64,000 nucleotides of DNA from Rhizophagus irregularis (GCF_026210795.1 NC_089432.1:5084001-5148000), one strand, 5' to 3'. Numbered from the stretch's first letter, positions 16,132-39,707 are shown. Made by a program: numbers and translations. The notes: generated from the sequence alone by a model not told the origin.

Positions 16132-18345
16132 ATGTCTGAAATGAACGAATGGGTTAAGTGGATTGATGAAGCTATTGCTAAAAAGCATATTAAGCATTAC
16201 GAGTATAAATATTTTAAACATATTCAAGAAATTGGTACTGGTGGTTTTGGAAAGGTTTATCGTGCGAAATGGAAAATTCATATCAATATTTTGCGTTAAA
16301 ATCTCTTCTTAATATTGAAGAGGATGCTATTAAGGAACTTGTTCATGAGGTGAATATAAAATATGCATATTTATATGTTATTTCTGTTTAAAAACTTATT
16401 TTATGTATAATTTATATATTTAGATTGAGCTTCAACGTGAAGTTACTTCCATAATAACGTTATTAGCTTTCATGGAGTTACTATTTCAGATCAAGGTAAT
16501 AAATAAAATATTTTTTTAAAAAAATAATATATGTTATTATATTACAATAAATTTAAAATTTATTCTTTTTTTTAGAGAATCAAAGTGACAACATTAAGAC
16601 ATATCTTTTAGTGATGGAGTACGCTGATGGTGGTTCGCTTAGCAAGTATTTGAAAGAAAATTTTGAGAAACTTACATGGGAAGTTAAACTTAAACTTGCT
16701 TACCAGTTGGCTAGTGCCGTATCATGCTTGCATGATGAAGACATAATACATCGTGATTTGGTGATAATTTATCAAATTTATTTATAAAATAATTATTATC
16801 AATTATATTATTTTGCCATAACAATTTATTTATTTTCTTATTATAGCATTCTAATAATGTATTAGTCAATCAAGATACTATTAAATTGGCGGATTTTGGA
16901 TTGTCAAAGAGAATCGAAGCGTCAACTAAAAAGAAAAAAGATTTATTTGATGTAGTTCCTTATATGGATCCAAAGAAATTCAGCAATAGATCATATTCTT
17001 TAAATAAGAAGAGTGACGTATACAGTGTAGGCGTACTTTTGTGGGAGATATCAAGTGGTAAACCACCTTTTTATGTAGAAGGAGAGTCATATGATGGTTG
17101 TTTAGCTGTGCAAATTATGCAAGGCCATAGAGAAACTACTGTTCCTTATACTCCCATTGAATACGTTAAGCTTTATACTGGTAAGTTTAATACTTTTTTA
17201 TTTATTTGTAAAAATAGTATTATAATTGAAAATTTGAATTTTTTTTTAGAATGTTGGGACGACAACCCAAAGAATGGCCATCTATTCAAGAAGTTGTTGA
17301 AAGATTAGATGGTATAATTAATCAAAGAAACGAAAATATTGATGAGAAATGACAAATAAAAATATAGTTTTAAATAGTATTGAAGAATCATCACATGGAG
17401 AATTATCTCAGGTTACTCAAGAATTCAATAAAATGAATACAAAAGAAATAATGGGAACTATGACATCAAGTAATCAAATTATTAACCAAAATTTGTTAAG
17501 TGTAATAGTTAATAATATTACAGAATTTATTTTTGAAGTGGTAAATAATAAGAGAAATAATGATAAGTTAAGACAGAAAGTTATTGATTATTTTAATAAT
17601 CGAAACATAAATCCACAAGAAATTTATAATTGGCTATTTGATAATCAAAATTATAATTCAAATTCAATTTTCTTGGATTTTTTAATTTTTATGGAATTGA
17701 AACAAGTGAAAATAAAAAGATGGCTTTTGATTTATTTATTAATGCTTCTGAACAAGATCATATATTGGCACAATATTTTGTTGGTTTTTGTTATATGTTT
17801 GGAAATGAAACTTCATTAAACTATTCATTAGCTTTTAAATATTATGAAAAAGTAGCTAATAAAGATTATGCAGTAGGACAGTTGTTTACTGGGTTTTGTT
17901 ATGATTATGGATATGGCATAAGTAAAGAACCAAAACTTGCTTTTTATTGGTATGAAAAAGCTGCAAATAATGGAAATATAGTAGCCATGTATAACCTTGG
18001 AAGTTCTTATAAAGATGGAAAAGGTGTTGAAAAAGATATAGATAAAGCAATTTATTGTTATAAAAAATCTGCAGAACAAGGTGATGAAGATGCTCAACAT
18101 AAATTAGAAGAATTAACAAAAACCAACTGGGTATTGTTATAGTAATGGATATGAAAACTTACTCTTTATTGGTATGAAAAATCTGCAAATAATGGGAATA
18201 TAGTTGGCATGTCTAATTTTGGCTATTTTTATAAAATTGGAAAAGATGTTGAAAAGGATATAGATAAAACAATTTATTGGTATAAAAATCTACAGAACAA
18301 GGATATGAAGATGCTCAAGTATGATTAGAATAATGAAAACCAAGT
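16132..18345 (+). pseudogene. Kinase + 4 Sel1 repeats, copy 3, frameshifted, with a duplicated Sel1 tail
   Basis: Same 5-exon layout as copy 4. One A is missing at ~16273 (stop in exon 1), with further indels near 17270, 17349 and 17670. 18120-18345 is a second decayed copy of the last Sel1 repeats. Confidence 0.88.
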
Positions 18346-20837
18346 TATTTATGTAAATTTATTTGTAATCTGTAAACAATTTCAGTTATTTATTAATAAA
18401 TCATTTGTATTATAAATGTAGTGTATACATCTTGAAATGTTTAATTTATAACTATGTTAAATATATTTACAGATAAATTTATATGGCAAATCAGCATTAA
18501 TTAATATTATTAAAATTTCTTGTAATGCGACATTAAATGTTATTTTATGGGTAAAATCATCATGTATTTTTTTAAAGAGTTATATTTTTGAAGTTAGATT
18601 TTTAATTTATTACTAAACTATTGGGAAATTTACTTACCTAAATAAAGGATGAAATTAACTATAATTACTATATTTAATAATTTTATTCATACATTATATT
18701 TTTTAAATTACCAGTACTCTCAAAATTGACCAGTAAAATTTAACACAGAACATTTGATTTTAGACTATTTATTTGCACAAAATAAGTCAACAAAATTCAC
18801 ACTACAAGTAATACATGATTTTCACTAAAAAAATTGATCATTGATCAGTTCATGTTTAATGTTATCTGATAATATGATCAGATGCATGTTCGCATGAACA
18901 TATTTTACCGTAGTTTTAGATTTGTAAGTTTTATCAGACAGTTAATGTCTAAATTAAAAATTGTAATACTGTATGGGAAAAGAATAATCATGATACTAGT
19001 TTTCATATTGACCAAATATTTTTATTCCAAAATTTTCTTTCTTTTTTTTTTTTTATGAAAAAGTGCATTTTTGTTCGGTCTCTGAAACTTAAGGAAATTC
19101 CAACCTTGTATTGTAATTTTAATTTTAAAAATATAGCTTAAACGCCAAAAAAATATCTAAATTTAATTGATATGAGATGTATTTTGTACTGTTGATTACA
19201 TGTGATATAATGGGATATTTTTTTGCTTTTAAATTAATTGCAAAAGTAAATGCTATTACTAAATTTTTTAAAACTTCATTTGGCAGGTTTTGGCCAGAAA
19301 CATCAATTTTTACCGGCACTATATTTTTAATGCTGGTTGATCGTCATAATTTCAGCCACCGGTGATCATCACCCCGGTGATAGTTAGAAAAATTCTATAA
19401 TAAACGTTTAAAGAAAGTTTAAAAAATTTCTTGGGGTGTATAAATTTGATGAGTAAACTTGAAAAGAAACTCTCAAATAAAAATCATGAATTAGAAAATG
19501 AAATCGATTATCGAAGATTTTTTCAACTGAAGTTAAATCAGTTTCAGAACACTGTGGAATATTGGACTGTAAAGTTTCAAATTATTTTTCATAACTTATT
19601 TGGATTTTTGAGGCTGATTCCTATAAAAAAGGAAAATTAAAAAAATTTAATTAAAAGCTTTGAATATATTTTTTTCAATATTTGGGATTTCCGGTTTTCA
19701 TGTTGAAGCCGATTTCCTAAAAAAGAAAAAAAGGTCAGAAATGATTTCTTTTAATAGTCTAGAATTCATTCTTTTGAAACTTACCTGGGATAAAAAAAAA
19801 ATTTTTTTTTAAACCATAACTTGGAAATCCAGCGCCCATTTCGGATCATTTCGGAGCTGGTTTCTCTACAAAGATGGATTTGGTAAAATATACTCAGCTG
19901 AATGGTCAGTTCCTTCTTTTTTTAAAAAAAGATAAATTATTTCAATATTACAGTATAAAAATCCTTTTCTTTCTATGCTTTTATTCAAAAATAAAAGTAA
20001 ATTGATAAGTAAAAAAGATGATAAAAAATTAAGAATTTCCGATTAAAAGAAAAAGTTTTTTTTTAAAAAAAATTTTGGTCATTGACATGTTAAAAAAGGA
20101 CAAAAATTAGTAATAAAAAAATAAAAAATCAAATCGTTTATTAAACGTTTCTTCGAAAAAGTTCAAAATTCTAAAAGAGGAAAAGTTTCGATAAAGTTTA
20201 AATTTTAAAAAGGGGAAAGTTTTGATAGTTTAAAATTTTATTAAATGCTATACATAGTGACTAATTTAATATAAATAGCGAAAGGTTTCAAAATATTATT
20301 TATTTATTTTATTTTATGTGAAGAATGGCAGGATCATCAAAAGGGCAAAACTAACTTATTAAGGAAAAAAACCCAAGGTTTCAAAATATTTATTTTATTT
20401 TATTTATTTTATGTGAAGCCAGACAGCCAAATAAACAGGATAAACTCCCATCGGAGTACAATCCTAATTCTTGTCATCATCCCGCCAGGAACCAATAAAA
20501 GCTCAAGGAAGGACCCTAACTTCTAATTATATAAGAGGGCCATAGCTTATCTTACCGCTACGGCCAACGTAAGGATAAGGAACATCCATGATAATAAAAG
20601 AAAACCATAACGAATGTAAATATATAACAATCTATATAAAAAAAGATCCATATTTTTCTTTTGACCAAAAGGCTACCAACCGTAAATACTGTCATGGTTG
20701 GAATGATTCACACTATTCTAAATTGTTATCTAAAAAAAAGATAAAAAAGAAAACCAAAAGCATGATAGCATATACAAATTAAGAAAAGAAACCTAAATAT
20801 AATAACGAAAATAATTGACTCTAAAACTAAAAAAAAA

Positions 20838-22876
20838 TTATATATTAGCAGAGGAACCTGAAGGATCTGCTTCTGAAGAGTCGTCAGCTTTAGCAGGGAT
20901 GTAACGCCTTCATTTTAATCGATCAATGGAACCATATATGGGTATGGGTAAAGTGTGATGTAGTAAGACGTTTGTATGGACGTCTTTCGATTTCCTTGGT
21001 ATCATCAGAAGTAATGACATTCGAATCCTATTGCGAAGGATTGTTAATATAATATCTTCCGCCTTTAGAAGGAACGTAAAGTTCATCATTCGTCATAGGT
21101 GGGATAACAGATATGCTCTTTCCAAGATTAAAGGCATCGTTGAAGGTGGTCATTTCTTGGTAAAGTTTAAGTTGGAAGTTAATATTACCTTCCATCATGC
21201 TATATCGTGAAGCGAGATTCGACATATTTTGGTGGTGATACTCAGATCGTAAAGAATGCCATTTTATGGCTCAGTTATGGCATTCGTAATGTTTAACACT
21301 TGTGCCGTGTAGGGCAGCTTCTTGCTTTCCTTTCCCTTTAATAAGGTCTTGAATACGATCATTTTCTTTGACAAGCAATTGTTGACGTTCCTCAAGAGAT
21401 GAGCGTGAAGGAGGTGGTGTTGATTTACGTTCAAGATCCAACTTATACATATAAGTAAACCATTCGCGAGATCCAGGAATAATAAATTCACCTGAGGCCG
21501 TATAAAGAGGCTTCTTAGGAATAATGTCTTTGTATTTTGACGGAAAAAACCCATTCGGGATAGGGTTATATTGTTCGACCGTATAAATTAAAAGGTCTTT
21601 CTTGGGAGTAATCTCCTGATTGTAAGGAATCTTGAAGCCATAGTCGGGATAATCAAGACCATGGGTGTATTGAAGATATTTAATCGGCTTGTAGATATAT
21701 TGCGATGGTAAAAATAAAAACCGGTAGCGTTGAGCAGTAATCAGCTGGTGCTTCATTGTATCAAGGCGATTATGTTCCTTGGCATGAAAAATTCATCGGC
21801 ATGCCCTATGATGGCGTATTTTCTGCGCTTTCGCTATTTTAGCATTTTTACTACGCGTAACTGAAAAGGTGTCCAGCCATTTACGATACATTTGCTTATT
21901 CACATGATGTATAACTAAGCCTTTAGTACGAGCAAGATAAGATTCCTTATAACTAATTCCCAATCGTTGGGATACAACATCTTTTTTCCATCTGCAATTC
22001 CATCTGTCATGTAACAAATTAGCATGTGAGCGCTTGTCGTTGACCGGAGTAGTAATGGTTGAGGTGAGGTCCTGACGTCCATGATTTCGGACATTATTGA
22101 AAGTATCATTACGAAAGAAAAGTTGTTGATGCATAACACAGGAGCGTCTACATTGAGACATAACAAAGGGGCTAGGAACTTGACATTTATTACAAGGGTG
22201 TAAAACGGTGAATGTGATGGTTGTTGAGAACAAGGGATATATTCCAAAATGAAAATGATATTTCTTATATGTGAAATTAAAAAAAGTACGAGTCGTAGTA
22301 TTATGTTCACGTAAATTATTAGCACGTGATGAAATCATTTCTTTACGAGCCAATAATCTATCTCGAATAAAAGAAAAAAATTTTTGTTGTATTTTGCGAG
22401 GTAAAACTCTTTGTGAAGAAAAAAAGTGTGTAAGCATACAACTAATTCTATATTTGTCATTCAGTGTTGAGCTCGTGTTGTGATAAAAGATAGGGGTACT
22501 TTTCATATGATAATCATTTGTGTAAATTTTAAGATGAATATCATTGGTGTTTTGAGGTAGATCATTTAACTTGAAAAAGTAACTTCTTGATCGTCTGATT
22601 TCATAAATCTTGTTGTATCCAGCCCTATTTGGACGGGTCACGTGAAATTTAGAAAAACGGAAATTTTCCCACCGGCGAAGAAGAGGAAGAAGGTTTATTA
22701 AAAGGTTTTTTACTATGAGAAGTGTAAGAAGGAGTTGAAGGAGCGTGAGATATAATATCTTTACGAGTAGAAATTTTGTCTAAAACTCTTTTATTAGAGT
22801 GTTGGTTAAGGTTAGTGAAATCATTATTTGGTTTTTCGTAACTTTCATAATCGTCTATGCGAAGAAAAGAGGACAT
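20838..22876 (-). pseudogene. Unit B ORF: basic protein of unknown function, ~680 codons, broken by stops and frameshifts
   Basis: ORF pieces 22649-22918, 21793-22641, 21271-21756 and 21028-21225 are collinear with the unit A protein; the last three share one frame and are separated by single stop codons. No introns are needed. Confidence 0.8.
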
Positions 22877-23505
22877 ATTTCCTTGGGTTTGGGTATAATA
22901 AGAACAGTAAAACCTCATCTTATGCCCGAGGCACCCTTCCGGGCTTCTACCTCTTAAGAGTGTTTATAAAATAAAACTTATAATGAAACCTACGCTATTT
23001 ACTGTGGAAAACTAACAAAAATAAAAAAAGGGGAAAGAGTTTTTTTTTTTTTCCTCCCAAGGTTTCAAAATATTTATTTATTTATTTTATTACTAAAAGA
23101 GTGTTAGAACCCAGACTATTACAAATAAAAGAAGGAAGAGTTCAAAAAGACTTGAAACTAATATATGTGTATAGACCTTTGTTCGTCATCCCCTACGGGA
23201 CCCCACTCTTCGATCTGTACTATTTGATAAAGTAGGACTACGCTAAAAAATCAAATGGGAACAATCAAAAAGCTAATCTAAAAAAAAAGAAAAGTTAGTT
23301 GATCCGTATTTTTCTTTTGGCCTAAGCCACCACCTGTAAATACTGTCATAGGTGGAATGGTAAACACTATTCTTATTGTATATACTATCATTGTAAGTTT
23401 AAAAAGATAAAAAAAAATAAGAAATAGACAACGTCTATATATAAAAATGATTCCAAAATAATGAAATACTAATCTATGAATTCAGATATGAGAACATTAA
23501 TAAAA

Positions 23506-25147
23506 TTATTTAGACGATCCTGCCTGCTCAGAATCAAGAGCTAAAGGAGTATCTAGGCGAGAGCGTTTACGTATGCCATAAGAACTCGAGTTATTATCAA
23601 AGTTGCGATCATTATGTTTCGAAGGACGGTATTCAATTTCTTTGGTGTCATCGGACGTGGATGACTCGGTAGGGAGTGTATTATCCTTATAAAAGAATAC
23701 TGATCGTGTGGTAATACACTTTAAACTAAGAGGAGCTAATACGCCAGGGTAGTTAATAAAAAAAGAATCTATTTCCGATTGTAAGAGTTTCTTCTTTTTG
23801 CTTTTCTTTTTCTTGGAAGGGGTAATAGGTTGAGAATTTTTCATATTAACATGATAAACATCGCTCCACCTCATTAAATCAGACACTTGACGTTGTCAAT
23901 ATTTAACGTTTTTAGAACTAGTGCCATGGTATAAGGCTAAATCATGAATTCTAATATCTTCTTGTATTATAAGATCGGTTATTTCCTTTGAACGTTCTTC
24001 TAGATGCTGTTGATAACGAACTCTAGAAGCTTCACCTTCAACAGTAAGTTCATCAATTCTAGCGGTAAATTTAGCATCATCTGCTTTTCTAAGGCGTTCA
24101 TCATGGGTATCTAAATCCAATTGATACATATAAGTAAACCATTCCCTAAAGCCAGGGCAATAAATGAACCAAAATGATCATAAATAGGATCAGGTGGTAT
24201 TATATCTCGATATTTGAGAGGAATAAACATGTCCGGAGTAGGATTATAAGGAGCGACCGTATATAATATTTCATTGTTAAGAACTGAAGCTGAAGTCGTA
24301 GCTGTGGCAATGGAAAAATTACTTGTAGCCTTTGGTCGGCTGGTCGTATTCGTATTAGTACCAAAATAATGAGGAATAGTAAAATTATAATCCTTTTGTT
24401 TGGGAATATCAACAGTTTTCTTATAACGTAAGTGTTTGAGAGGAGTCGTAAATTTTTGAGATGGTAAGAAAAGGAATCGTCCTTTTTTAGCCGTGGCCAG
24501 TTTCGTTGATGTACTGGAAACAGCTCCTGGTTTAGTAACTTCTTGTGATAAGATACGATGACAAGAGCGTTCGAATCTAATTTGCTGCTTTTTAGCTGTC
24601 CTCAGATTAGGACTTGGAGTTAGTTGGAAGTTATTCATAAGTTTGTGATAAATGTGAGTACGTCCAGGTCTGAGTTTACGATTTGAATTGCAAACAACAT
24701 ATTTTGAGTTATAAGAGATGCCCGTTCTTGAGGAGAATATCGATTTTGATTCTTTTTTTATCCATCGGTCAAATGTCAAATTAGCGTGGAACTGTTTATT
24801 TTGATGTTGATTACTACATGTAAAATCACCATGTTCGTTTCGTACAAAAGCTATTGCAGCTGGGTATTTGTGAAAAAAATGTAAGCCACATCCATATCTC
24901 TTATTAAACATTACTATAGGACAAGGAACCTCACAAGGTCGAGGTAGAATAGATAAGCCTTTTGTCTCAATCATATGGTCACAAGGGATAAAGATACCAA
25001 AATGAAATCTATATCTTTTGTACGAGAAATTAAAAAAAGTTTTCATTGTTGTATTCTTATTGTTGATTTTACTCTCACGTGACTTGATAAACGTGATTCT
25101 ATCTAATAACTTTTGGCGTATCATATCAAAATATTTTTTTTGAATAC
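23506..25147 (-). pseudogene. Unit A ORF, C-terminal part (paralog of unit B protein)
   Basis: Pieces 24111-25124, 23896-24129 and 23506-23886 share FFNFxYKxYxFHFGI, HANL..DRW, GISY, FLFLPSQ, KYxDIIP, HGTS and TSDDTKEIE with unit B; one frameshift near 24155 and one internal TGA. Confidence 0.82.
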
Positions 25148-28030
25148 TGTTAATCGAATAATCACATGACCAGTGATCATGTTACGAATGTTACGAATGT
25201 TACGAATGTTGCAAATGTTACGAATGTTTAATATGTTTAACATGTTAAACATATGCAACATATTAAATATATAACACATATTTAACATATTACATTTGTT
25301 AAATATATAGCATTTATTTAATATTCTTAACATGATTAGCATAGAATTTATTGTTATAAATACATGCGTTCTAAATCAATGTAATAATAGATAATTCTGT
25401 TATATTTTAATAAAAAGCATTTATTAAATAAATTACATCAGGAAGTCACGGGAAAAATATTCATCAAATGTACATCGGTCACTTGATGTACATCATAAAG
25501 AAACGCTGAACATCGGACCCTGCAATGTACTACTGATGTCACAACATTTGATGTTCATCGCCAAATTAAAGATGTTCATCACCTGTACATTACGATTAAT
25601 TAACACATTTATTAATGATATTAAAATACATGCGTTATTTATTATTATACTATCATTATACTATACAAATGTATTATTAACTAATTAATATAATATCTAT
25701 GGCTATTTTAAATCTATATAATATGTTAAATACTAGATAAAAATTGATTTCCAAAATAAACCTATAAAGAAAAAAATGAAAATGTTAATAAAACTTTTCG
25801 TTAAAAATAAAAAAAAGTAAAATTCGAAGGGATATATATACCTTCGAAATAGGATCCAGTCGCGTCTTGGACCTACAAAAGAAAAAAAAATGAAACCGTT
25901 AGTAAAAACGTTTCGTTAGAAAAAATAAAAATTTGAAGGTACTGTATATACCTTCGAAATTCCATATAACTGAGTGATCCCAGATCCTACAAAAAAAAAG
26001 CAAACAAAAAACGTTAGTTTACGTTTCTAAAAGAAAAATAAAAAAATCCAAGTTTCGAAGTGAATTGAAATCTTCGAAACTTACCAATCCGTTAAGATTC
26101 GTCTTCTTTTTCCGTTCTTCAGAAACCCACCCAAGATCTAAAAGAAGAAAAAGAATTAGAAATAACAAAAAAAATTAAAAAAATTAAAGATTCGTATTGT
26201 CCTTACGAATCTTTGGGTTTTCTGTTCTTCAGAAGCCCACCCAAAACCTAAAAATCAAAGAAAAGAACGGTTAGAAACCGTTCATAATAATAAAATAAAT
26301 AAAAATAAACCAAAGATTCGTACTTACGAATTTTGGTTTTTTCCATTTTTCAGAAGACACCCGAGAAACCCAAAACCTAAAAATAAAATAAAAAGAACGG
26401 TTAGAACCATTCATAGTATTAAAAAAAATAAATCTAAGGTTCGTAATATAATACTTACGAACCTTAGTTCTCCATTTTCCGTTCTTCAGAAGACCACCCG
26501 ATGGAACCTATAAAAAATAAAATAAAAAGAACAGTTAGAACCGTTCATAGTATTAAAAAAATAAATCTAAGGTTCGTAATATAATGCTTACGAACTTTAG
26601 TTTTTTGTTTTCCGTTCTTCGGAAGATCACCTGACAGAACTTATAAAAAATAAAATAAAAAGAACGGTTAGAACCGTCCATAGTATTAAAGAAATAAATC
26701 TAAGATTCGTAACTGAATATAATACTTACGAACCTTAGTTCTCCATTTTCCATTCTTCGGAAGCCCTTTCGAGACACCGAACCTATAAAAAAAAGAAAGG
26801 AACGGTTAGTAAACCGTTTCATAATAATAAAAAAAATAAAAAAAAACCAAGATTCTTACGAATCTTGGTTCCTCTTTGCGAAATCCCCTTCCACCATCCC
26901 CCTTTCCCAGTTTTTTACCTTAAAGTCTGGTTTCGTGAACAAGCTGGCGTCCTACAAAAAAAAAACAATGAAAAAGAAACGTTAGATCGTTTCTTAAATT
27001 AAAAATAACAAAAAATCTTCCACTTTCCAGTTTCTTACTACCTTAAAGTCTGGTTTCATAGTATTCAAGCCAGCGTCCCCCTAGTAAACGTCCTACAAAA
27101 AATAAAATAATAAAGAGAAACGTTAGTTCGTTTCTTAAATTAAAAATAACAAAAAATCTTCCCCTTTTCAGTTTCTTACTACCTTAAAGTCCGGTTTCAT
27201 AGTATTCAAGCCGGCGTCCCCCTAGTAAACGTCCTACAAAAAATAAAATAATGAAAAGAAACGAAAAAAAAAGATAAAATTAAAAAAAAAATAAAAAAAA
27301 AATAAATTAAAAAAAAGTAACGAAACTTACAGGTGTGAGAAAAAGAAGAGAACGAAAGGGAAGTGAAGGACGAAAGGAAAGGGAAGGATATAGGAGAAGG
27401 ACGAAAGGACAAGGGGACGAAGGGAAGTGAAAGAAAGGGAAAAAAAAAGTTTAAAGTTTTTTATTAGACTTTTTTTTATCAAAAAAAAGATCGATCGGCA
27501 AACTGATCACATGATACCGATCAATACTAACTGAAATTTACTAGTTAGTAATTATATTTTTATTATAGCAAAGATATGTACATTGAATATTTATTATTAA
27601 ATGCTGCACATCATGATAAAAATTTCATTGATGATGTTCATTAATGTTAAATATTACTTGTACATTAAAAAGAATGAATATTGCAATGTACATGATTTGC
27701 ATAAATGTATATGTAATGTACATTTTTTTCGTAACTTCCTGATGTATCTCATTGTTTATTTTATAGTTTGTTATATTTGTGAGTCAGTATTTGCGTCTGA
27801 GTGTATATGCCCGTGTGCAATACCGTATTCGCATTTGACTGAAATTTCATTTTATTTTATTGTGTAACCTTCGTAAATCGATCGACAGTGATACATTTAC
27901 TAATAATTTCATATAGTTTATTTCACTTTGCGTTCATTAACATTATTTAATATTTATTTTATTCATAATCCTTCTGCTTACCATACACCCATACGCTTAT
28001 TTTTATAAGCATACAAGAACTGGCATAACA
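25148..28030 (+). repeat. 5' LTR (572 bp plus a 2.3-kb TIR-element insertion)
   Basis: 25148-25435 and 27747-28030 match the 3' LTR almost base for base; contains GTTACGAAT 9-mer repeats. Confidence 0.95.
25436..27744. mobile_element. Non-autonomous TIR element with TA target duplication (Tc1/mariner-like or another TA-TSD family), 2309 bp
   Basis: TIRs CATCAGGAAGTCACGGGAAAAAT / ATTTTTTTCGTAACTTCCTGATG flanked by TA. The empty site AAATTATCTCATT is visible in the 3' LTR at ~35388. No transposase ORF. Confidence 0.92.
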
Positions 28031-28033
28031 AAT

Positions 28034-28051
28034 TGGTGCCTTCTGCCAGAA
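28034..28051 (+). promoter_or_regulatory. Primer-binding site, tRNA-His-like
   Basis: TGGTGCCTTCTGCCAGAA(TC) begins 3 nt after the 5' LTR and is complementary to a ...GGCA-CCA acceptor end as in eukaryotic tRNA-His. tRNA identity is recalled, not searched. Confidence 0.7.
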
Positions 28052-28627
28052 TCCCGATTTCCCATTATTTTAGTCCCCTTTTATGTTCTAAAACCATTTC
28101 AATCGCAATGATATACACGACGCTATACATAGACAATTAGGGCTAAATAACATAACCACTTATCATCGTGATCTATCGTGTAATAATTGTTACCCATCTG
28201 AGATCCCCTTAACCCCACTTTTCAACACTTTTTGGATTGGATTTCTTCTAATTATCCAGTTATAGAATATACCCGATACACTCAACAATACTTTGAAGAG
28301 GTTGCTTATTCAATCACTAACGCGGATATTGACAACGCCATACATAACCTATTGTTCAGTATCCGATACACTGATATAGAACCAATAGATTATACCCTTT
28401 TGCGTCATGATCTTATTAACGCCTATAATCTAACCAACAGTTTTTAGCAGGATCCTAACGAAGTCCTTTATCAAGTCAGTGAGACTACTACCTCACCAGA
28501 ACCTGAAGCTTTAAGTGATACAACATCAGAGAATTCTGAGGAAGAAATTCCCCATTTACATATTCCACTACCACCTATTTACAACACACCGAATAACCCA
28601 GCTCCAGTAATTCCACTGGTAATTAAT

Positions 28628-29695
28628 ATGGCCCAACCTAACCAGCAGGACTTTCAGCAATTACGAGCGGCAATCACAGCATTAACCCAGGTATTGCCGA
28701 ATACCAACAATGCTTTGGTCGGGAATACACAGGCCATTGCCAACCCGCCAAGACGAGGAGGAAAGGTGGCTGAACTGCCATCATTCTATGGAAGCAATCA
28801 GGACCCGGTCGCATGGTTCGAGGATTTTACTAGAGCTTGCAATGCTAATGGTATAGCAAATGGCCGTAAATTGGAAGTAGTGCCGGCCTATCTTAAGGGC
28901 GCTGCTTCTACATGGTGGAATGCTAATCAGGCGTTACCAAACAATAACCCTAATAAGATCACCGTGTGGACCGGCAATAATAACAATACCGATTTTATCC
29001 AGAATTTCCCAGCGGCTTTTAGGACTCAAACCCTAGTCAAAATCTGGACCACAGAACTAAAACAAAGGCGACAACAACCTGGCAAGGATGTAAATACCTA
29101 CGCCGCCGCCTTACAAGAACTATACCGAAGGGTAGAGACGAATGCTTTCGCCTATCTCGAAGCAATCAAGGCTTGGAAATTTGTAAACGGTCTATTGCCT
29201 GACCTATATGTCACCGTTAAGCCTCACAATGAACAAACATGGAATGGCGCGGTGGATAGAGCTAAAGCGTATGAGTTAACGCATAAGGATCAAGGCGCTG
29301 TCAGCGCATACCTCAATAAATTTACGCCGATGACAACTACTGACCATACCGGCGATTTACTTAAGGCCATCCAGGATTTATCTAAACAAGTGCAGTCGAT
29401 AGGTAATGGATATAGAGGCTATCGGAATAATAATAGTTTCCGAAATGCCAACCAGCAAACGGTCCAAACAACACAAGGTAGACCGAATCAGGTCGTATGT
29501 TATTCATGTGGAGAACCGGGACATATATCTAGGACTTGTCCGAATAGAAATAATGTTGCTGGACGTCCCAATAATATTCCGAGAAATAATAATACCCCAC
29601 AACCAACAAATACAAATGACCAACTTGCGCAGATACAACAATTGCTGGCCCAATTGGTATCGCAAGAAAGTACCGAAGACCAGCATTTAAACTAG
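28628..29695 (+). CDS. gag: Gag (capsid + CCHC zinc knuckle)
   Basis: 355-aa ORF with FYGSNQDPVAWFEDF, YLKGAASTWW, QQPGKDVNTY and CYSCGEPGHISRTC. Confidence 0.93.
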   Translation: MAQPNQQDFQQLRAAITALTQVLPNTNNALVGNTQAIANPPRRGGKVAELPSFYGSNQDPVAWFEDFTRACNANGIANGRKLEVVPAYLKGAASTWWNANQALPNNNPNKITVWTGNNNNTDFIQNFPAAFRTQTLVKIWTTELKQRRQQPGKDVNTYAAALQELYRRVETNAFAYLEAIKAWKFVNGLLPDLYVTVKPHNEQTWNGAVDRAKAYELTHKDQGAVSAYLNKFTPMTTTDHTGDLLKAIQDLSKQVQSIGNGYRGYRNNNSFRNANQQTVQTTQGRPNQVVCYSCGEPGHISRTCPNRNNVAGRPNNIPRNNNTPQPTNTNDQLAQIQQLLAQLVSQESTEDQHLN

Positions 29696-29728
29696 GAGGC
29701 GTACCTCAGGAGGGTGAGCGTACACGCC
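29686..29728 (+). promoter_or_regulatory. Putative -1 ribosomal frameshift signal (T TTA AAC plus downstream stem)
   Basis: Heptamer TTTAAAC is in the gag phase just before TAG; the -1 frame stays open into the protease ORF; GGCGT...ACGCC pairing follows. Confidence 0.75.
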
Positions 29729-32700
29729 AGACAACAATTCCCTCGAATTTGACGCTATTGGAAACATATCCCGCTACAAGAACTACCCGAAGTAAATCTA
29801 GACTTGATCTGACTATTGGAACCGTAAAGGATAAACCTCCGGAAGAAGAGATAATAGTACGAACCATACAAAGCTCTGGTAAATCTAAACAACCAATAAG
29901 GTCAACTGGAGTAAAGAAAGTCGAACCTAAGAAGGTGGTCAAAAAGAAGTCTGCCGCAGTAGCCCCAATTTACAAAATGATAGAACCATATACGCCGCAG
30001 CAGTTCTTTGATCAAAAGGCCGATATTACGAATGGCCAGTTGCTGGCAATGAACCCAAAGTTCAGCTTAACAGTGGCCAAACAGCTAAGAAAACCGGTTG
30101 TTAGGACAAAAACTGAAGAACAAGATAAAAAACTGGTTAAGAAAGATGATGAAATTCTGAATAATGGAAATGTTTCTGAAGTTGAAAATCTCATGCAGGT
30201 GGCTAATACCGCCGGACCGAATGATGATCGAACTTCGGCATTATATTGTGAAGCCTCGATTAAACACATAAGATTCCCGCTGATCGTTGATTCTGGATCG
30301 GCTGGAAGTATTATTTCCTTATCATTATTGAAAGATTTAGATATGGAAATAACGAAAGCCTCAAAAACTATTATGGTGAATGTAAATGGAGAGCGTCGAC
30401 GACCATTGGGCGCTGTAACTGACATACCGTTGAAGATACATGAATGCATCATTCCGGTGGATGCCATTGTTACCGATGCTAATTCATATTCTGCTATAGT
30501 CAGAAATGATTGGCTGCGTAAGACCAAGGCCGTTCTGGACTATAACAACAATCGGATGACCATCAAGTGGAAAGATCAGGTTTTAGAAGTGACCACCGAA
30601 TGTAGAGAAATGCCCCACCACATAACTAGCATCGAGATACCGAATATAGAAGCCGAAGAAGAGGTTGAGGATGAATCCGAAAAGGAAGTTGATGAAGAAG
30701 CCGTAGAAGAATCGGAAGAAGAATATGAAAGTGACGACGAGGAGACACAAGAGCAGCTATTCTGTAACGCCGGATATATTACTCAGGAAAAGGTGCAAGA
30801 AATCGAAGAAGAATTAAAAGAAGGAAATTTCGTCAGTAATGAATATTACTACCAGTATGAAGAAATTGAAAAAGGAAAATTTTATACCAGAAAATTGGAC
30901 GAAGAATAACATCGGAAATTCGATGATTTTATGGAACGATATCAGGATCTGTTTGCCTGGGATCCTAATGACTTCAGAAGAACATCGGTAGTTACACATA
31001 AAATCAATACCGGAGAAGCTACCCCGGTTGGACAAAGATTCTACTGAACATCTTATCAAAACCAGCTGTTCATAAAAGAAGAAATACAACGATTATTGAA
31101 CGCCGGTTTAATAACTCCATCAAAAAGTCAATGGACTTCACCAGTTGTAGTGGTGGAAAAAAAAACGGCAAGAAACGTCTTTGCGTGGATTATCAGAAGT
31201 TAAATCAAGTAACGAAACGAGACTGATATCCCTTGCCGAGAATCGATGACATGCTGGAAACGTTATCCGGATGTCAATGGTTTTCCTCCCTTGATCTTGC
31301 CAGCGGGTTTTGGCAGGTCAAACTTAGTCCGAAAGACAGGGAAAAATCGACGTTTATCACCCGTTTCGGAACCTACGAGTTTACGGTTATGCCATTCGGC
31401 CTATGTAATGCTCCCGCCACCTTCCAGCGCTTGATGGATACAGTATTATGGGACATATTGTGGCAATATGTTGTGGTGTACATAGACGATATTAACGTGG
31501 GCTCCAAGACGTTCGAAGAACACCTACAACATTTGGAACAGGTTTTTCTTCGATTAAAATTAGCCGGACTGAAGCTGAGTCCAGAAAAATGTTTCTTTTT
31601 TAAGGATGAAATCCCGTTTCTAGGACACGTTGTAAGCTGGAAGGGCATACAAACCGACCCTGAAAAATTAAAAACCATTAGGGAATTTCCCATACCAAGA
31701 GACTTGATGCAGTTGCGAGGATTTATCGCTCTAGCGTCTTATTATCGTAAATTTGTCAAAGGGTTTTCATCGATAGCCGAACCCTTGAATAGACTTTTAA
31801 AGAAAAACACCCCGTATATATGGAGTGACGAACAACATGATGCTTTTGAGAAGCTTAAAACATGTTTGATGACGCCTCCTATATTGGCTTACCCAAATTT
31901 CGAGAAGCCATTTATTCTTTATACAGACGCATCTACCTTCGCTTTAGGTGCAATTCTATCCCAGAAAGACGAAGACAAACGCGAATGCGTTATAGCATAC
32001 GCAAGTCACACTTTAAACAAGCATGAACGAAACTATAGTATAACAGAACTCGAGTGTCTTGCGGTAATTTGGTCAGTGAGACACTTTCACCAATATCTGC
32101 ATGGTCAGAAATTTACGGTGATTACGGACCACGCTGCGTTACGATATTTAATGAATTTATCGAATCCTGTTGGCAAACTCAAACGATGGTTAATGACTTT
32201 GAATGGCTATGAACTTGAGATAATAAACTGCCCCAGAAAACTTCACTCCAACGTCGATACATTAAGCCGAATAAGAACTTAACGCATCTTCGTTGAAAAA
32301 CTCTATTAACCACCCGATTTGCATATATACGACGCCGATTTATTGGATTACCCATATTTTTGACTCAACATGGATTTAAACACCTACTTCTCACTCATAC
32401 ACTTTTTGATGACACACTCAATGCCAACACACCTCGATACGCAGCAACATGCTTCTATTAAACGAAAATCAAGATATTTTATTATCTTGAATGATCAACT
32501 TTATAAAAAGAATAAAGTTAACCCCAATAGACCGATACGAGTTGCAAAAGAAAATGAAATAGAGGATATTCTATATCATATGCACTCAGATCCATTAGCA
32601 GGCCACTTTTCAATAGATGAAATGTATCGAAGGATAAAAATTTGATACTACTGGCCGCAAATGTTCAATGACGTTCGCCGATATGTGCGAACCTGTGATG

Positions 32701-33075
32701 AATGCCAACGAAGGGGCAAAAATCGCCGCAATGAACCTCTCCATCCGATAAAGGTCGGACAACCATTCGATAGACTAGGAATGGATATTGTCGGACCGTT
32801 GCCTAAGACGAAAAATGGCAACATGTATATTGTCGTTGCAACCGAATACCTGACCAAATGGCCGGAAGCCCGCGCAATTCCCAACGCTAAGGCATCATCA
32901 GTTGTCTCGTTTTTCTACGAAGATATTATATGCCGCCATGGATGCCCAAAAGAGCTATTAACCGACCGTGGGACGCATTTTGTAAACGAAATGCTAAACT
33001 CCTTATGCGAAAACCTTGGAGTTAAGCATAAATTGTCTACGGCGTATCACCCGCAGACTAACGGGTTGGTAGAGC

Positions 33076-33886
33076 TAGAGCTCTGAACAGGTCAGCCAAA
33101 TTCAGGTAACCTGACCTGACCTGACCTGAAATTCAGGTCAGGTATGAGATTTTTAAAAAAAATTCAGGTCAGGTATGAAGATTGACCTGACCTGTTGACC
33201 TGAAACTATTGATTCTACTATATAATAAAAGTGAGTTGCAGTATTGCGATTCACTTTTTTATATTGATTTTATATAATAATAGTGAGTTGCAGTATTGCG
33301 ATTCACTTTTTTATATAGATTCTATATAAAAAAAGTGAGTTGCGGTATTGCGATTCACTTTTTTATATAGAATTAATATAAAAATGTGAATTGCAATACT
33401 GCAACTCACTTTTTTTATACAAAATCAATATAAAAAAGTGAATTGCAGTATTGGGATTCACTTTTTTATATGATTTTAATATAAAAATGTTGAATCGCAA
33501 TATTTCAAGAAAAAACATTGCGAAAACGTTTTTTCATAATATTATATTAAAAAAATGTTTTGTAACGTTTTTTTTTTTGATATTTCAATAATAGCATTGT
33601 GAAAACATTTTTTTCATAATGTTATATTAAAAAAAACGTTTTGCAATATTTTTTTTCAATATTTTAATAAAAAACGTTGCAAAAACGTTTTTTTTCATAA
33701 TATTATATTAAAAAAAAAAAGGTTTGTACCGTTTTTTTTCAATACTTTAATAAAAATTTTTCAGGTTTCAGGTCAGGTCAGGTCAAACAGACAACCTGAT
33801 ATAACCTGACCTGACCTGACCTGAAAAAAAATTTCAGGTCAGGTTTATCAATTAACCTGACCTGACCTGACCCATTCGGAGCTCTA
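33076..33886. mobile_element. hAT-type MITE, 811 bp, inserted in the integrase
   Basis: TIRs TAGAGCTCTGAACAGGTCAG / CTGACCCATTCGGAGCTCTA; 8-bp TSD GGTAGAGC (33068-33075, 33887-33894); excision restores GLVERFNR. Contains (CCTGA)n subterminal repeats and two palindromic minisatellites. Confidence 0.94.
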
Positions 33887-34659
33887 GGTAGAGCGCTTCA
33901 ACCGAACGTTATGTGAAGCCCTTGCCAAATATGCCAATACAAATAAAGACGATTGGGATTTGTACCTATCATCTGTTTTATTTGCATACAGGACGAAAAG
34001 CCATAGCACCACACGGCATGAACCTTTCTACTTGATGTATGGCCGTGATGCTGTGCTTCCAATAGAATTCGCTGTTTCCACTGCGCAAAGTAAATGCGCT
34101 GGGGAAAATTTCCAGGATGATCTCTTTAATCAAATTCACACCCTTACTGGAAAGGTGATAGTTGATCGCCTTGAAACACAAGATAATATATGCAAGGCGC
34201 AACAAAGGCAGAAAGAGCAACATGATGCAGGTCTTTCCGAAGTGCATTTTAAAATCGGAGACCTTGTGTTGCTATACCAAAGTCAACTAAGAGGCAAGCA
34301 AAAATTCCAAGAAAGATGGAAAGGCCCCTATTATGTGCATGAAATATTAGGAAATGGCGCATATAAGTTGCGCACAATTGAAGGAAAGATTTTAAAAGTT
34401 CCGGTGAATTCGGAACGGTTGAAATTGTATCACCAACGCATATAGACTATCATGCATGAATGCATGATTGATGATATAATGAATGCATGCATTTAATGTA
34501 TGCTAAAAAAAAAAAAAAAAAATTTTTTTTATTTTTATATATATATATATATAGTTTATTTATTATTTTTTTTTGTTTGTTTATTTATTATTATTATTAT
34601 TTTTGTTTATTGTTTATTGTTTATTATTATATTTATATATTGTTTAATTTAAAAAAAAA

Positions 34660-35127
34660 ATGGCCAAAATAAATGCTTATCAAAGAATCTTGGAAGATTT
34701 GCGACAATTACAACCAACCGAAATTGTGGCATATCCGCCACCTTATACGATTACCGCAGGCTTGGAAGAAAAATTTGATTTAATCAATGCTGCCATAGAA
34801 AGGTCCAAGCGCATTGATGACCGAATATTAATGCTAGCAAATGTCTACTATTTAGGACATTTTCTGGAAGTAGAAATTCGGGATAATACAAGACGCGGTC
34901 AATTTCTACAACAATTATCTATACATTTCCGGACGATTGCTATCCGAACTTATTATATATTTGAGGTCTCCGGAGTTGAACAGATTATGAGAACAACCCA
35001 TACAACCCCCACTATGATCCGGAAGCTCAGTACGGCAGAATATAAGGATTTGGTCTTTAAATCCATCGAAATTTTCAACGGGATTGAAAATCTGGGAGGG
35101 AGTGGTGTTAATCGAATAATCACATGA
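34660..35127 (+). CDS. Extra 155-aa ORF of the Gypsy element, unknown function
   Basis: Uninterrupted ORF of normal composition after an AT-rich spacer; it runs through the PPT (GGGAGGGAGTGG, 35094-35105) and stops inside the 3' LTR. Confidence 0.7.
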   Translation: MAKINAYQRILEDLRQLQPTEIVAYPPPYTITAGLEEKFDLINAAIERSKRIDDRILMLANVYYLGHFLEVEIRDNTRRGQFLQQLSIHFRTIAIRTYYIFEVSGVEQIMRTTHTTPTMIRKLSTAEYKDLVFKSIEIFNGIENLGGSGVNRIIT

Positions 35128-35679
35128 CCGGCGATCATGTTACGAATGTTACGAATGTTACGAATGTTGCAAATGTTACGAATGTTTAATATGTTTAACA
35201 TGTTAAACATATGCAACATATTAAATATATAACACATATTTAACATATTACATTTGTTAAATATATAGCATTTATTTAATATTCTTAACATGATTAGCAT
35301 AGAATTTATTGTTATAAATACATGCGTTCTAAATCAATGTAATAATAGATAATTCTGTTATATTTTAATAAAAAGCATTTATTAAATAAATTATCTCATT
35401 GTTTATTTTATAGTTTGTTATATTTGTGAGTCAGTATTTGCGTCTGAGTGTATATGCCCGTGTGTGCAATACCGTATTCACATTTGACTGAAATTTCATT
35501 TTATTTTATTGTGTAACCTTCGTAAATCGATCGACAGTGATACATTTACTAATAATTTCATATAGTTTATTTCACTTTGCGTTCATTAACATTATTTAAT
35601 ATTTATTTTATTCATAATCCTTCTGCTTACCATACACCCATACGCTTATTTTTATAAGCATACAAGAACTGGCATAACA
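35106..35679 (+). repeat. 3' LTR, 574 bp
   Basis: TG...CA ends, preceded by the PPT, matches the 5' LTR. Confidence 0.96.
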
Positions 35680-36185
35680 ATACGACGTGGAATAACTTTT
35701 TGTGAGGAAAAAAAATGCTGAAGACCTTTGCTAATTTGATATTTGGCGTTCGGTAGTGCGCTTGTGGAATGATACTTAATAGGGGTAGTTGACATGAGAT
35801 AATCATTTGTGTGTATCTGTAAATGAAGTTGATTGGTGTCCAAATGGTGATCAACAATCTCAAAAAAGAAACTTTTTGAATGTCTAAATTCGTAAATCTT
35901 GTTATAACCGGCTTTGTGTATTCTGGTCACGTGAAATTTTTTAAAAGAAATGAGAAAAGAATTATCGACATTAGGTGGAGTCGTTGTTGAAGAAATGGGA
36001 GATATAGAAGAAAAATCTTTTAATGGATAACCATCATTATTATTATATGGAGAAACTTGAGAATCAATGTCTGTAGTTGAATAAGGAGAACTATCTTGTG
36101 AAAATGAAGGGTCATCTATACGAATAAACGCGTGTGTTGATGAAGATGAAGACCAGTCTATTACTATAGAATTTGAAGAAGTCAT
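35680..36185 (-). pseudogene. Unit A ORF, N-terminal part, cut by the Gypsy insertion
   Basis: MTSSN...FHVTRIHKAGYNKIYE...HFFSSQKVIPRR. Removing the Gypsy and one ATAC copy rejoins it in frame as ...VIPRRIQKKYFDMIRQKLLDR, matching unit B VLPRKIQQKFFSFIRDRLL. Confidence 0.85.
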
Positions 36186-37656
36186 ATTCCCTTGGGTGTG
36201 GGTAAAATACTAACTAAAAACCTCGTATTCAACCAGAGGCGCCCTCTTGGGCCTCTTCCCCTTTAGCGTTTCAAATCAAAACTGAAAAAAACTAACTAGC
36301 GCAAAAATTACTGCGGAAAATTAACAAAATGTAAAAAAAGGGGAAAGAGTTTTTTTTCCAAGGTTTCAAAATAAACTTTAGCCGAAATTTATTGCAATAA
36401 ACCATAAAATTCCACGTGACCAAATTTATATACATTTCAAATACTAAGAATTGCAAAATATATGAATTAAGAAATACTGAAATACATACAAAATGAAACA
36501 ATTTTGCTATATTTTTTGCATATATCAATAATATATATATTTTATTAGTAGTTTATTTCAGTATATAAAATTAAATATCTGATATGTTATTTATATTACA
36601 AAAATATTTGTTAAATCATTAGTAATTTGGAAATTAGAATATATTAGTGATATGTTTAACGTATTTTATGAAAATCAAAAGATTCAGCAAAGTAATTATA
36701 ATTACAATACTTAGTATATTATTGTGTTTATTTGATTTACCAGTATTTTCAAAATTGACCAGTAAAATTTAATCCTTTATTTTAAACTATTTATTTGCAC
36801 AAATACGTCAACGAAATTTACACTATAAGTAACTTAAGATTTTCACTAAAAAAAAATCGATCATTGATCAGTTCATGTCTGACAATATAATCAGACGCAT
36901 GGTCTTCTAATGTTTAATAGGGTTCCTTGCCTTTATCATATTTGTCTTTTACTTCCCAGATCCTCGGCTTTTCTTACTTTGCCTAATATTAGTCATCTTA
37001 CTCGCTTAATTTACTTTATTTTCTCTAGAGGTAACATCCGCCGCATGTATGGACATATTTTTTTTGTCTATAGGTTGTAGTTTTTTTAGACTGGTGGAAT
37101 TATTTCTAAGTTAATGTCTAAATTAATCATAATACTGCTAGCTTTCATATTGACCAATTATTTTTTTATTATAATTTTTTTTCTTTTTTTTATGAAAAAG
37201 TGCGTTTTTGGAGATCTAAAGGAAATTCCAAACTTGTAATTTTAATTTTAATTTTCTAAAAATGATTGATTTTCCAGGTAAACAGGAAGTAATTCCATGG
37301 AATAAGTAAAGTATTAAGCTAGTATAACCTTTTATGTATAATCTAAACGTTAAGGTGCTATGGAATCATATTGAGACACTAAAAGTGATTATTTTTTTTT
37401 CTTTAAAATCCGAAAGATAAAATGTTGTAAGTAAAAATTTCAACTGATCAGCGAATGATTACCTCACTAATTCAGTACACGTGATTTAAGTCAGATTTTT
37501 TGTCTAAATAATCGACCTGCATGCACATGTGTGTAATTTGTTTAATTTGCGTAATTTGTGTAATTGTATACCTAAATTAAATAAAAACTTTTTCCTCTTC
37601 TTTTCGTACTCGGATAAATATAACTTTTCCATAACAATATTATATACATATTCAAA

Positions 37657-39707
37657 ATGTCTGAAATGAACGAATGGGTTAAATGGATTGATGAAGCTAT
37701 TGCTAAAAAGCATATTAAGCATTACGAGTATAAATATTTTAAACATATTCAAGAAATTGGCACTGGTGGTTTCGGAAAGGTTTATCGTGCGAAATGGAAA
37801 AATTCATATCAATATTTTGCGTTAAAATCTCTTCTTAATATTGAAGAGGATGCTATTAAGGAACTTGTTCATGAGGTGAATATAAAATATGCATATTATA
37901 AACTTATTTATATATTATTTCTGATTTAAAAATTTATTTTATGTATAATTTATTTAGATTGAGCTTCAACGTGAAGTTACTTTCCATAATAACGTTATTA
38001 GCTTTCATGGAGTTACTATTTCAGATCAAGGTAATAAATAAAATGTTTTTTTTTTTAGAAAAATAATGTATGTTATTATATTACAATAAATTTAAAATTT
38101 ATCTTTTTTTTAGAGAATCAAAGTAACAACATTAAGAAATATCTTTTAGTGATGGAGTACGCTGATGGTGGTTCGCTTAGCAAGTATTTGAAAGAAAATT
38201 TTGAGAAACTTACATGGGAAGTTAAACTTAATCTTGCTTACCAATTGGCTAGTGCCGTATCATGCTTGCATGATGAAGACATAATACATCGTGATTTGGT
38301 AATTTATCAAATTTATTGATGAAATAATAATCATATAAATTATATTATTTTTACTATAACAATTTATATTTTATTTCTTTTATTATAGCATTCTAATAAT
38401 GTATTAGTCAATCAAAATACTATTAAATTGGCGGATTTCGGATTGTCAAAGAGAATCGAAGCGTCAACTAAAAAGAAAAAAGATTTATTTGGTATAGTTC
38501 CTTATATGGATCCAAAAAAATTCAGCAATAGATCATATTCTTTAAACAAGAAGAGTGACGTATACAGTGTAGGCGTACTTTTATGGGAGATATCAAATGG
38601 TAAGCCACCTTTTTATGTAGAAGGAGAGTCGTATGATTGTAGTTTAGCCTTCCAAATTGTGCAAGGTCATAGAGAAACTACTGTTCCTGATACTCCCATT
38701 GAATATGTTAAGCTTTATACTGGTAAGTTAACACTTTTTTATTTATTTTTAAAAATAGTATTATAATTGAAAATTTGGATTTTTTTTTAGAATGTTGGGA
38801 TGACAACCCAGATAATCGGCCATCTATTCAAGAAGTTGTTGAAAGATTAGATGGTATAATTAATCAAAAAACCGAAAATATTGATGAGAAAACTGATCAA
38901 TCATTTACAAATAAAAATATAGTTTTAAATAGTATTGAAGAATCATCACATGGAGAATTATCTCAGGTTATTCAAGAATTCAATAAAATGAATACAAAAG
39001 AAATAATGGGAACTATGACATCAACAAGTAATCAAATTATTAGCCAAAATATTTTACCTGAAAATGATTTAAGTGTAATAGTCAATAATATTACAGAATT
39101 TATTTTAGAAGTGCTGAATAATAAGAGAAATAATGATAAGTTAAGACAGAAAGTTATTGATTATTTTAATAATCAAAATATTAATCCACAAGAAATTTAT
39201 AATTGGCTATTTAATAATCAAAATTATAATTCAAATTCAATTTTTTTACTTGGATTTTTTAATCTTTATGGAATTGAAACAAGTGAAAATAAAATGATGG
39301 CTTTTGATTTATTTATTAATGCTTCTGAACAAGATCATACATTGGCACAATATTTTGTTGGTTTTTGTTATTATTGTGGACGTGGAACTTCACAAAACTA
39401 TCCATTAGCTTTTAAATATTATGAAAAAGTAGCTAATAAAGATTGTGCAATAGGACAGTTGTATACTGGGAGTTGTTATAGCAATGGTCATGGCATAAAT
39501 AAAGAACCAAAACTTGCTATTTATTGGTATGAAAAAGCTGCAAACAATGGGAATGTATTGGGCATGTCTAATCTTGGTTATTGTTATAAAATTGGAGAAG
39601 GTGTTGAAAAGGATATAGATAAAGCAATTTATTGGTATAAAAAATCTGCAGAACAAGGATATGAACGTGCTCAAAAATACCTAGAAGAATTAATGAAAAC
39701 CAAGTAA
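37657..39707 (+). CDS. Kinase + 4 Sel1 repeats, copy 4, intact, ~575 aa
   Basis: Exons 37657-37875, 37958-38030, 38114-38298, 38389-38722, 38791-39707 join in frame; GTGGFG, ALK, HRDLHSNN, DFG and SDVYS intact. Confidence 0.92.

Follow-up and report, generated by a model that had tools for sequence, protein, structure and literature searches.

A candidate trans-mobilised, protein-coding retroposon family: three head-to-tail DUF8211 units at one 14-bp site in Rhizophagus irregularis

Introduction

HAL1, the mammalian "half-L1" said to have been reported by Bao and Jurka in 2010, is reportedly a non-autonomous element that has kept one protein-coding open reading frame (ORF) and is without ORF2. 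The HeT-A element of Drosophila telomeres is described as a non-LTR element (one without long terminal repeats, LTRs) lacking pol that is found in head-to-tail arrays (PMC5537684). For R1, the account of Stage and Eickbush 2009 (PMC2718515) gives tandem copies separated by a 14-bp target duplication in seven Drosophila species, and explains these arrays by later copies that enter the duplication at the 5′ end of one already in place. Rhizophagus irregularis is reported to contain the long interspersed nuclear element (LINE) families L1-Tx1, L1-R1 and R2-Hero, which are site-specific clades, and about two-thirds of its repeats are reported as unclassified (PMC11075540). Here we examine a 64-kb stretch of the R. 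irregularis genome (GCF_026210795.1, NC_089432.1:5084001-5148000), called the window below and numbered from its first base, in which three units lie head to tail between exact copies of a 14-bp sequence, the two long ones carrying an ORF of the protein family DUF8211. The original prediction for this locus was a site-specific tandem array of protein-coding cassettes without a reverse transcriptase (RT), and the present analysis follows up on it.

Array structure

A search for AAGGTTTCAAAATA with no mismatches allowed found it four times in the window, always on the + strand, at 20282, 20375, 23059 and 36360. Shuffled sequence gave a mean of 0.01 matches and none of 100 shuffles reached four, and when two mismatches were allowed the additional matches were at chance level. 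Between these copies are three minus-strand units arranged head to tail, with exact boundaries and N+1 copies of the 14-mer for N units (four for three). Unit 1 is 79 bp (20296-20374), unit 2 is 2670 bp (20389-23058) and unit 3 is 13287 bp (23073-36359), the last coming to 2751 bp after a Gypsy element (25148-35679) and one copy of its 4-bp duplication, GTAT, are subtracted. On the minus strand of the units, the upstream-most 14-mer is copy 4 (36360-36373), which we read as a target-site duplication, followed by copies 3 (23059-23072) and 2 (20375-20388) and by the downstream-most copy 1 (20282-20295).

Reading in the same direction, every 14-mer but the last is followed by GG, GGGAGG or GGG, and the units end in irregular AAAT/AAAAT tails of 19, 24 and 22 nt. 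These tails vary in pattern as well as in length, and the differing 5′ junctions precede a conserved leader start. The array is far beyond chance and the observation is confirmed: the four exact 14-mers bounding three minus-strand units, the GG starts and the A-rich ends were all as predicted.

Relationship of the two long units

To place the two long units, a maximum-likelihood tree was made from the region covered by both (59 of 84 rows and 197 columns, with 25 gappy rows dropped and the protein P0001 omitted as it is unit 2's own gene model). Unit 2 grouped with P0006, P0003 and P0005 in a four-row clade with a Shimodaira-Hasegawa-like approximate likelihood ratio test (SH-aLRT) value of 99, itself within a 16-row clade (96), and unit 3 grouped with P0035, P0029, P0019 and P0031 in a five-row clade (95) within a different clade of 14 rows (95). 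Results from tblastn have the same pattern, with unit 3 being 75-91% identical over segments to P0035, P0029 and P0019 and about 38-40% identical to the relatives of unit 2, and unit 2 showing the reverse; either unit is 63-91% identical to its own relatives and about 38-40% to the other unit's group. Compared directly at the nucleotide level, the two units are 73% identical in the leader (213 bp), about 70% in the ORF (254 bp) and 82.7% in the 3′ motif (75 bp).

Since units 2 and 3 belong to different well-supported subfamilies, they arrived independently and not by local duplication. This agrees with two earlier suggestions, that the long units are too diverged to be a recent tandem duplication and that the array reflects independent, repeated insertion at one target, as the tree puts the units apart and gives each of them closer relatives elsewhere in the genome. 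Judging from these comparisons, two lineages and a third fragment arrived separately at exactly the same 14 bases.

Anatomy of the units

The full units share a layout consisting of a leader, a single intronless ORF of about 550-810 amino acids (DUF8211), a 3′ hairpin module, a variable 3′ end and the AAAT/AAAAT tail, with landmarks in the leader formed by an A-run plus CTCTTTCC at its start and TTCCGCAGTAA further in. In unit 3 the leader is at 36186-36359, the ORF at 36185-35680 and 25147-23509 on either side of the Gypsy element, and the 3′ untranslated region (UTR) at 23073-23508. This 3′ UTR includes the conserved 3′ module (23301-23373) with its hairpin at 23330-23355 (CCACCT, a 14-nt loop and AGGTGG), a 3′-terminal module (23147-23257) that genome runs show to be repeated more than any other part of the region, and the tail, which is AATAAAATAAATAAATAAA at 23073-23091. 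Unit 2 has its leader at 22877-23058 and a decayed ORF at 22876-20844, followed by a 3′ UTR with the conserved 3′ module at 20645-20719 (hairpin at 20676-20701, CCAACC, loop and GGTTGG) and a tail at 20389-20412. Unit 1 begins with GGG and about 25 unmatched letters and continues as a unit-2-like 3′ end with a tail; it is 88.6% identical over 44 bp to the 3′ end of unit 2 plus the 14-mer, with no match to other parts of unit 2, and may be a severely 5′-truncated copy.

The alignments confirm that the long units share a leader, one intronless ORF and a 3′ motif, as originally proposed, with the correction that both ORFs are decayed. That of unit 2 is broken by one or more frameshifts near 22650 and by stops in frame at 21793-21795, at 21271-21273 and at about 21025. 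That of unit 3 is interrupted by the Gypsy insertion, shifts frame by 1 nt near 24156 and meets a TGA in frame near 23896. An alternative genetic code was considered and rejected: table 4 opens the ORFs of the units, but the in-frame TGAs face arginine or tryptophan codons of their relatives and the frameshifts persist, and for these reasons we regard the ORFs as pseudogenes and not as recoded genes. Two R. irregularis gene models, P0001 (labelled GLOIN_2v1781434) and P0002, have 475 of 476 and 389 of 390 residues, respectively, exactly in the three frames of unit 2, and their "introns" skip its frameshift and stops. These models are probably artefacts of annotation, and as such swell the count of "orphan genes". 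The 3′-terminal module of unit 3 is also read through in a protein model, P0021.

Related copies in metagenomes

Further copies were sought in metagenome contigs of the Joint Genome Institute (JGI), where five short loci were found, one of them (L001) complete at its 5′ end; no relatives were found in a prokaryote genome collection or in viral contigs (0 in each). L001, a soil contig of 3143 bp, has an intact intronless ORF of 808 amino acids, about 40% identical, and keeps the leader landmarks upstream of the ORF (the A-run plus CTCTTTCC, then TTCCGCAGTAA) and the 3′ module downstream. The second landmark, TTCCGCAGTAA, is also found in L002. The leader of L001 is preceded by unrelated sequence and its 3′ end runs off the contig. 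None of the five outside loci contains the 14-mer, and since L001 has the same anatomy without it, the 14-mer is not part of L001's 5′ end.

The hairpin has a 6-bp stem and a 14-nt loop with an identical predicted fold in unit 2, unit 3 and L001. Its stems read CCAACC/GGTTGG, CCACCT/AGGTGG and CCACGT/ACGTGG in these three copies, so that three of the six pairs are changed on both sides in a compensatory manner. Non-coding ends that are kept across about 40% protein identity suggest signals acting on the element's own RNA or DNA, and not ordinary UTRs.

Another of the outside loci, L003, has a 55-bp direct repeat starting GGTTAAAGTTTGG at 1-55 and 335-390, upstream of a distant DUF8211 ORF. The second repeat copy is preceded by a hairpin (CCGTAC, a 14-nt loop and GTACGG) reminiscent of the 3′ hairpin, and the upstream region of L003 has no significant match to the leader or 3′ UTR of the window units.

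The DUF8211 protein

Searching with the unit ORFs returned 82 homologous proteins, almost all labelled R. irregularis or R. diaphanus and annotated as host hypothetical proteins, and 80 of them, including P0001, carry the precomputed label PF26638 (DUF8211). Our direct Pfam scan gave no DUF8211 match for any member, as the Pfam copy used is probably without that model. The original impression that this is not a described family is therefore only partly right: the protein is in Pfam as DUF8211, and a full-text literature search for DUF8211 found no paper with the name. A profile search against 1.84 billion representatives gave 587 clusters at 50% identity, 420 of them at E ≤ 1e-10. Among the best 150 of the 587, all representatives are 697 amino acids or shorter, and a search among longer proteins found no fused longer homologue. 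Many representatives of about 400-450 amino acids start exactly at profile position 240 and are therefore without the N-terminal half, which may reflect a genuine short form, internal initiation or truncation of copies.

Across 46 sequences scanned with Pfam (four pieces from the window and 42 family members), no RT, endonuclease, nuclease, transposase, DDE, HUH or tyrosine or other recombinase domain was found, and neither was a Rep or helicase domain; that the units would show no RT, DDE or tyrosine recombinase had been anticipated. AlphaFold models have a core of alpha/beta type, the conserved cluster C-x9-C-x14-C-x2-H and, C-terminally, a long coiled coil, which is predicted at residues 474-605 of P0019. 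The predicted local distance difference test (pLDDT) score is 65 for the whole protein, and the core alone has a pLDDT of 79 and a predicted template modelling (pTM) score of 0.60. Well-conserved positions of the core (105 in total) are mostly F, R, K, S and aromatic residues, with three acidic ones (E34, D37 and D53 of the L001 core). Foldseek searches with both models gave no match at E ≤ 0.001 against the PDB and no match against BFVD. In the VIA wide search the core reached a best Z of 3.8, which is no known fold, and the whole model returned only coiled-coil rows with generic partners at Z of about 5. A sequence profile search of the PDB gave only chance-level rows and an ESM Atlas search gave no usable match. 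Reading the conserved residues by eye as those of an HUH/Rep protein or tyrosine recombinase was also rejected, as the HLKIH histidines are not conserved and the order of conserved R, K, H and Y residues does not fit.

Copy number

Four genome or soil runs supplied contigs, which were aligned to the region at 80% likeness, with the junction repeats at 20292-20419 and 23023-23097 masked. In run X10 the summed contig depth was about 66000 over the 3′-terminal module (23147-23257), about 29000 over the hairpin module of unit 3 and about 18800 over the best-kept ORF bin, and exact single contigs of unit 2 had depths of about 80-160. Summed depths are only rough copy-equivalents, and their profile cannot separate truncation from differing conservation; on this rough measure the modules are present in hundreds of copy-equivalents and the family is highly repeated. 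The 3′-terminal module is repeated several times more than the ORF, and it may also occur in some other high-copy element, which could be the partner LINE or a short interspersed nuclear element.

A joint between 20667 and 23326 was considered as a deletion allele and rejected, as it is the hairpin module of a paralogue bridging two copies. Run X19 has contigs (1881 and 518 nt) with about 97.5% likeness to unit 2, covering it from leader to hairpin module (20645-23022). These contigs have small indels at some of unit 2's defects, and may represent a better-kept close copy in another strain. The polyA RNA run X24, of which about 24% was read, gave no reads on the unit 2 ORF bins (20904-22191) and only partial matches of 95-99% in the flanks. 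No run is recorded as RNA among the matches listed, and X17 to X19 are RNA by guess only.

Mechanism of insertion

We propose that the units belong to a non-autonomous, protein-coding retroposon family that inserted three times into one 14-bp target duplication by target-primed reverse transcription (TPRT), an explanation to which we give about an even chance. Transcripts would start at the leader and end at the tail, and these RNA copies would be reverse-transcribed and inserted in succession by the endonuclease and RT of a site-specific LINE acting in trans. The LINE endonuclease would nick the bottom strand at the TATTTTGAAACCTT edge and the top strand 14 nt away, and every insertion would rebuild the site on both sides so that the next copy could enter there, as the published account of R1 has it. 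The G-rich 5′ junction letters would be non-templated additions, and the conserved 3′ hairpin together with the terminal module could be the handle by which the borrowed enzyme picks the RNA. The DUF8211 protein may then be an ORF1/Gag-type partner of its own RNA and not the integrating enzyme. A duplication of LINE-like length, the tails, the 5′ letters, a 3′-only copy, the intronless ORF and the 3′ structure are the anatomy of TPRT, from which we infer the later steps. Of the two options left standing by the original prediction, a retroposon mobilised in trans or an array of cassettes formed by site-specific recombination, the former fits better: it explains why the A-rich tails vary, why additional G-rich letters stand at the 5′ junctions, why the 79-bp unit resembles a fragment of a 3′ end and why the geometry is identical to that of R1 arrays.

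Several observations weigh against this proposal. We saw no partner LINE that matches the units in 3′ end, tail or target. Only a single locus shows the 14-bp duplication, because no other copy is readable at both ends, and the absence of the 14-mer from the five outside loci means that the predicted targeting of this sequence by the family is not supported family-wide. A/T-rich ends carry less weight here, since the tails are short and the genome has about 25% G+C. The hairpin's folding energies were no better than those of shuffles (z −1.2, +0.6 and −1.4), and its covariation comes from three sequences only. As for the protein, searches of Pfam, PDB sequences and folds found no likeness to any ORF1/Gag family, and the conserved acidic residues E34, D37 and D53 could point to a catalytic role. 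Lastly, unit 2 is identical in runs labelled with three organisms and in a soil run, and neither a presence/absence polymorphism nor an empty site was found in these runs, in which the junctions were masked.

Alternative explanations

If the 14-mer were instead the element's own 3′ terminus, the units would end in (AAATA)n-TATTTTGAAACCTT and the copies would be laid end to end, either by template jumping of an RT between RNAs or through new copies inserting immediately after a 3′ end already present, with the upstream-most 14-mer being the stub of a fourth, nearly wholly truncated copy. An identical 14-mer follows all three units though the preceding 3′ UTR ends can barely be aligned, and since the 3′ end of L001 is off its contig a 14-mer could still be present there, both of which speak for this explanation. 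We nevertheless consider it unlikely, as it requires the extra 14-bp stub to give the N+1 count, it would need two subfamilies with only about 38% protein identity to have retained 14 of 14 terminal letters as the remaining 3′ end diverged, and it would place the simple-repeat tail inside the element and not at its end. Every junction has exact direct repeats, which are as compatible with recombination as with duplication, and it is possible that the units are DNA-level mobile cassettes, with DUF8211 being a new site-specific integrase or nuclease, the 14-mer being the crossover core of an attachment site and circles integrating repeatedly, in the manner of integron cassettes or Crypton-like recombination; in a variant of this the recombinase may act in trans. 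Every full unit has one long ORF, recognisable across the 587 clusters, with the conserved Cys/His cluster, acidic residues, a coiled coil and a core without a known fold (best Z 3.8), and tyrosine-recombinase elements are described as active in Glomeromycota (PMC13465315). Against a cassette stand the lack of any recombinase, DDE or HUH family match in the 46 sequences scanned and a set of conserved residues that is mostly F, R, K, S and aromatic, with 3 of 105 acidic. The 79-bp unit, variable tails and variable extra 5′ letters would also be unexpected from conservative recombination, and both the 5′ junction of L001 and the five outside loci as a whole are without the 14-mer, making a cassette quite unlikely in our view. 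A new class of autonomous mobile element, in which DUF8211, having a zinc-type Cys/His cluster and a coiled coil, would itself recognise and open the 14-bp site and integrate its own unit repeatedly through DNA or a host polymerase, possibly guided by a CACGTG-bound factor, seems improbable.

An ordinary lineage-specific host gene family would require the array to have formed by local tandem duplication, through unequal crossing-over at a 14-bp microhomology, with divergence and decay afterwards. The family is annotated as host hypothetical proteins, and unequal exchange does occur here since the region itself is a tandem cluster of genes joining a protein-kinase domain with Sel1 repeats. The tree rejects units 2 and 3 as mutual closest relatives, however, and at about 70% nucleotide identity between the units four 14-mers would not remain identical by chance. 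A leader and 3′ hairpin kept at 40% protein identity would be unusual for the UTRs of host paralogues, and the modules are found in hundreds of copy-equivalents, so that we find a host gene family very unlikely. Three described classes of mobile element were also compared and do not fit. Helitrons have a Rep/helicase ORF, 5′ TC and 3′ CTRR ends, and insert between A and T without a duplication; the units have GG...TAAA ends with a 14-bp repeat and neither a Rep nor a helicase domain. An autonomous LINE of the R1, Tx1 or R2 clades does not fit four unit pieces and 42 members without an RT or endonuclease and without a longer fused homologue. Membership among Cryptons or other tyrosine-recombinase elements, or among integron-like cassettes, is not supported either, as there is no recombinase domain and the 14-mer is absent from all five outside loci.

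Genomic surroundings

The Gypsy LTR retrotransposon inside the ORF of unit 3 (25148-35679, + strand) was recognised with Pfam by its gag, protease, RT-RNase H and integrase, and contains the only RT in the region by the same scan. The insertion is about 10.5 kb long and flanked by the 4-bp duplication GTAT at 25144-25147 and 35680-35683, and its LTR parts agree at 99-100%. The left LTR (25148-28031) exceeds the right (35106-35680) by about 2.4 kb, and the excess (25441-27812) has tandem repeats of 133 and 141 bp (26422-26825 and 26948-27229).

Around the array, the window domain scan placed kinase-Sel1 genes at 2197-3794, 7405-8987, 16847-18139 and 38389-39704 on the + strand and at 48793-50092 and 52583-53245 on the minus strand. 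The array is bordered at 18652-19132 and 36690-37264 by a repeat, about 200-500 bp long, that goes with these genes. Outside the Gypsy element the G+C content of the window is 23-35%. No Rfam family was found in the window, at gathering thresholds or at E ≤ 1; this negative covers rRNA as well as known ribozymes and other RNA families in the leader and the 3′ module. The 300 bp on either side of the insertion site have no further copy within the window.

The original prediction had also noted a CACGTG about 40 nt from the site, and this is present at 36413-36418, which is upstream of the first 14-mer by 39 nt and of the first base of unit 3 by 53 nt. L001 likewise has a CACGTG 58 nt upstream of its leader. 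The motif occurs 12 times in the window, four of these within the units, and the insertion flanks in the window and in L001 are not alike beyond chance (170 of 2000 shuffles and 353 of 2000 random window segments were as good). Tethering to a CACGTG-binding factor would explain the repeated use of one spot, and we take the motif near both insertion sites as a weak lead only, since two cases make no rule. CACGTG is also retained inside the ORF of every copy read by an invariant protein motif, KFHVT (22639-22644, 35928-35933 and about 560-565 in L001).

Comparison with known elements and significance

HAL1 is said to be, like the DUF8211 units, a non-autonomous LINE-type element with a single protein-coding ORF. 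Its ORF is reportedly L1 ORF1 and its descent from L1 evident, whereas no LINE parent is visible for the DUF8211 units, and their single-ORF layout is old, being common to the L001 copy at 40% protein identity. R1 as described by Stage and Eickbush resembles the array in lying head to tail at one site with copies separated by exactly the 14-bp duplication, and also in having non-templated letters at 5′ junctions and 5′-truncated copies with the same duplication (PMC2718515). In that description R1 encodes both an endonuclease and an RT, of which the DUF8211 units encode neither, and its target is the multicopy 28S rRNA gene, unlike the intergenic spot in a kinase-Sel1 cluster, without an Rfam rRNA, that is used here. 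The sharing of one site by two different subfamilies is a further difference. With HeT-A, as far as it is described in PMC5537684, the units have in common one structural protein, no pol, an RT from elsewhere, long conserved non-coding parts and head-to-tail arrays; HeT-A differs in adding to chromosome ends, with no internal target or duplication in that description. The HeT-A protein is moreover described as a recognisable Gag, and DUF8211 matches no Gag or ORF1 family. The mechanism that we consider most likely thus follows a known pattern, with an R1-like re-entered duplication and HeT-A- or HAL1-like coding content, and its carrier is an undescribed family of Glomeromycota that is very large and encodes a protein without a known fold.

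DUF8211, with its 587 clusters at 50% identity, is now annotated as host hypothetical genes, including models that are spliced around the defects of a pseudogene. If the units are indeed protein-coding retroposons without an RT, a sizeable part of what now inflates the "orphan genes" of mycorrhizal fungi would have to be reclassified as mobile DNA, and fungi would have in this family their own counterpart to HeT-A and HAL1, though with a protein unrelated to theirs. It would also point to active site-specific LINE machinery, the target rules of which could be read from these passengers.

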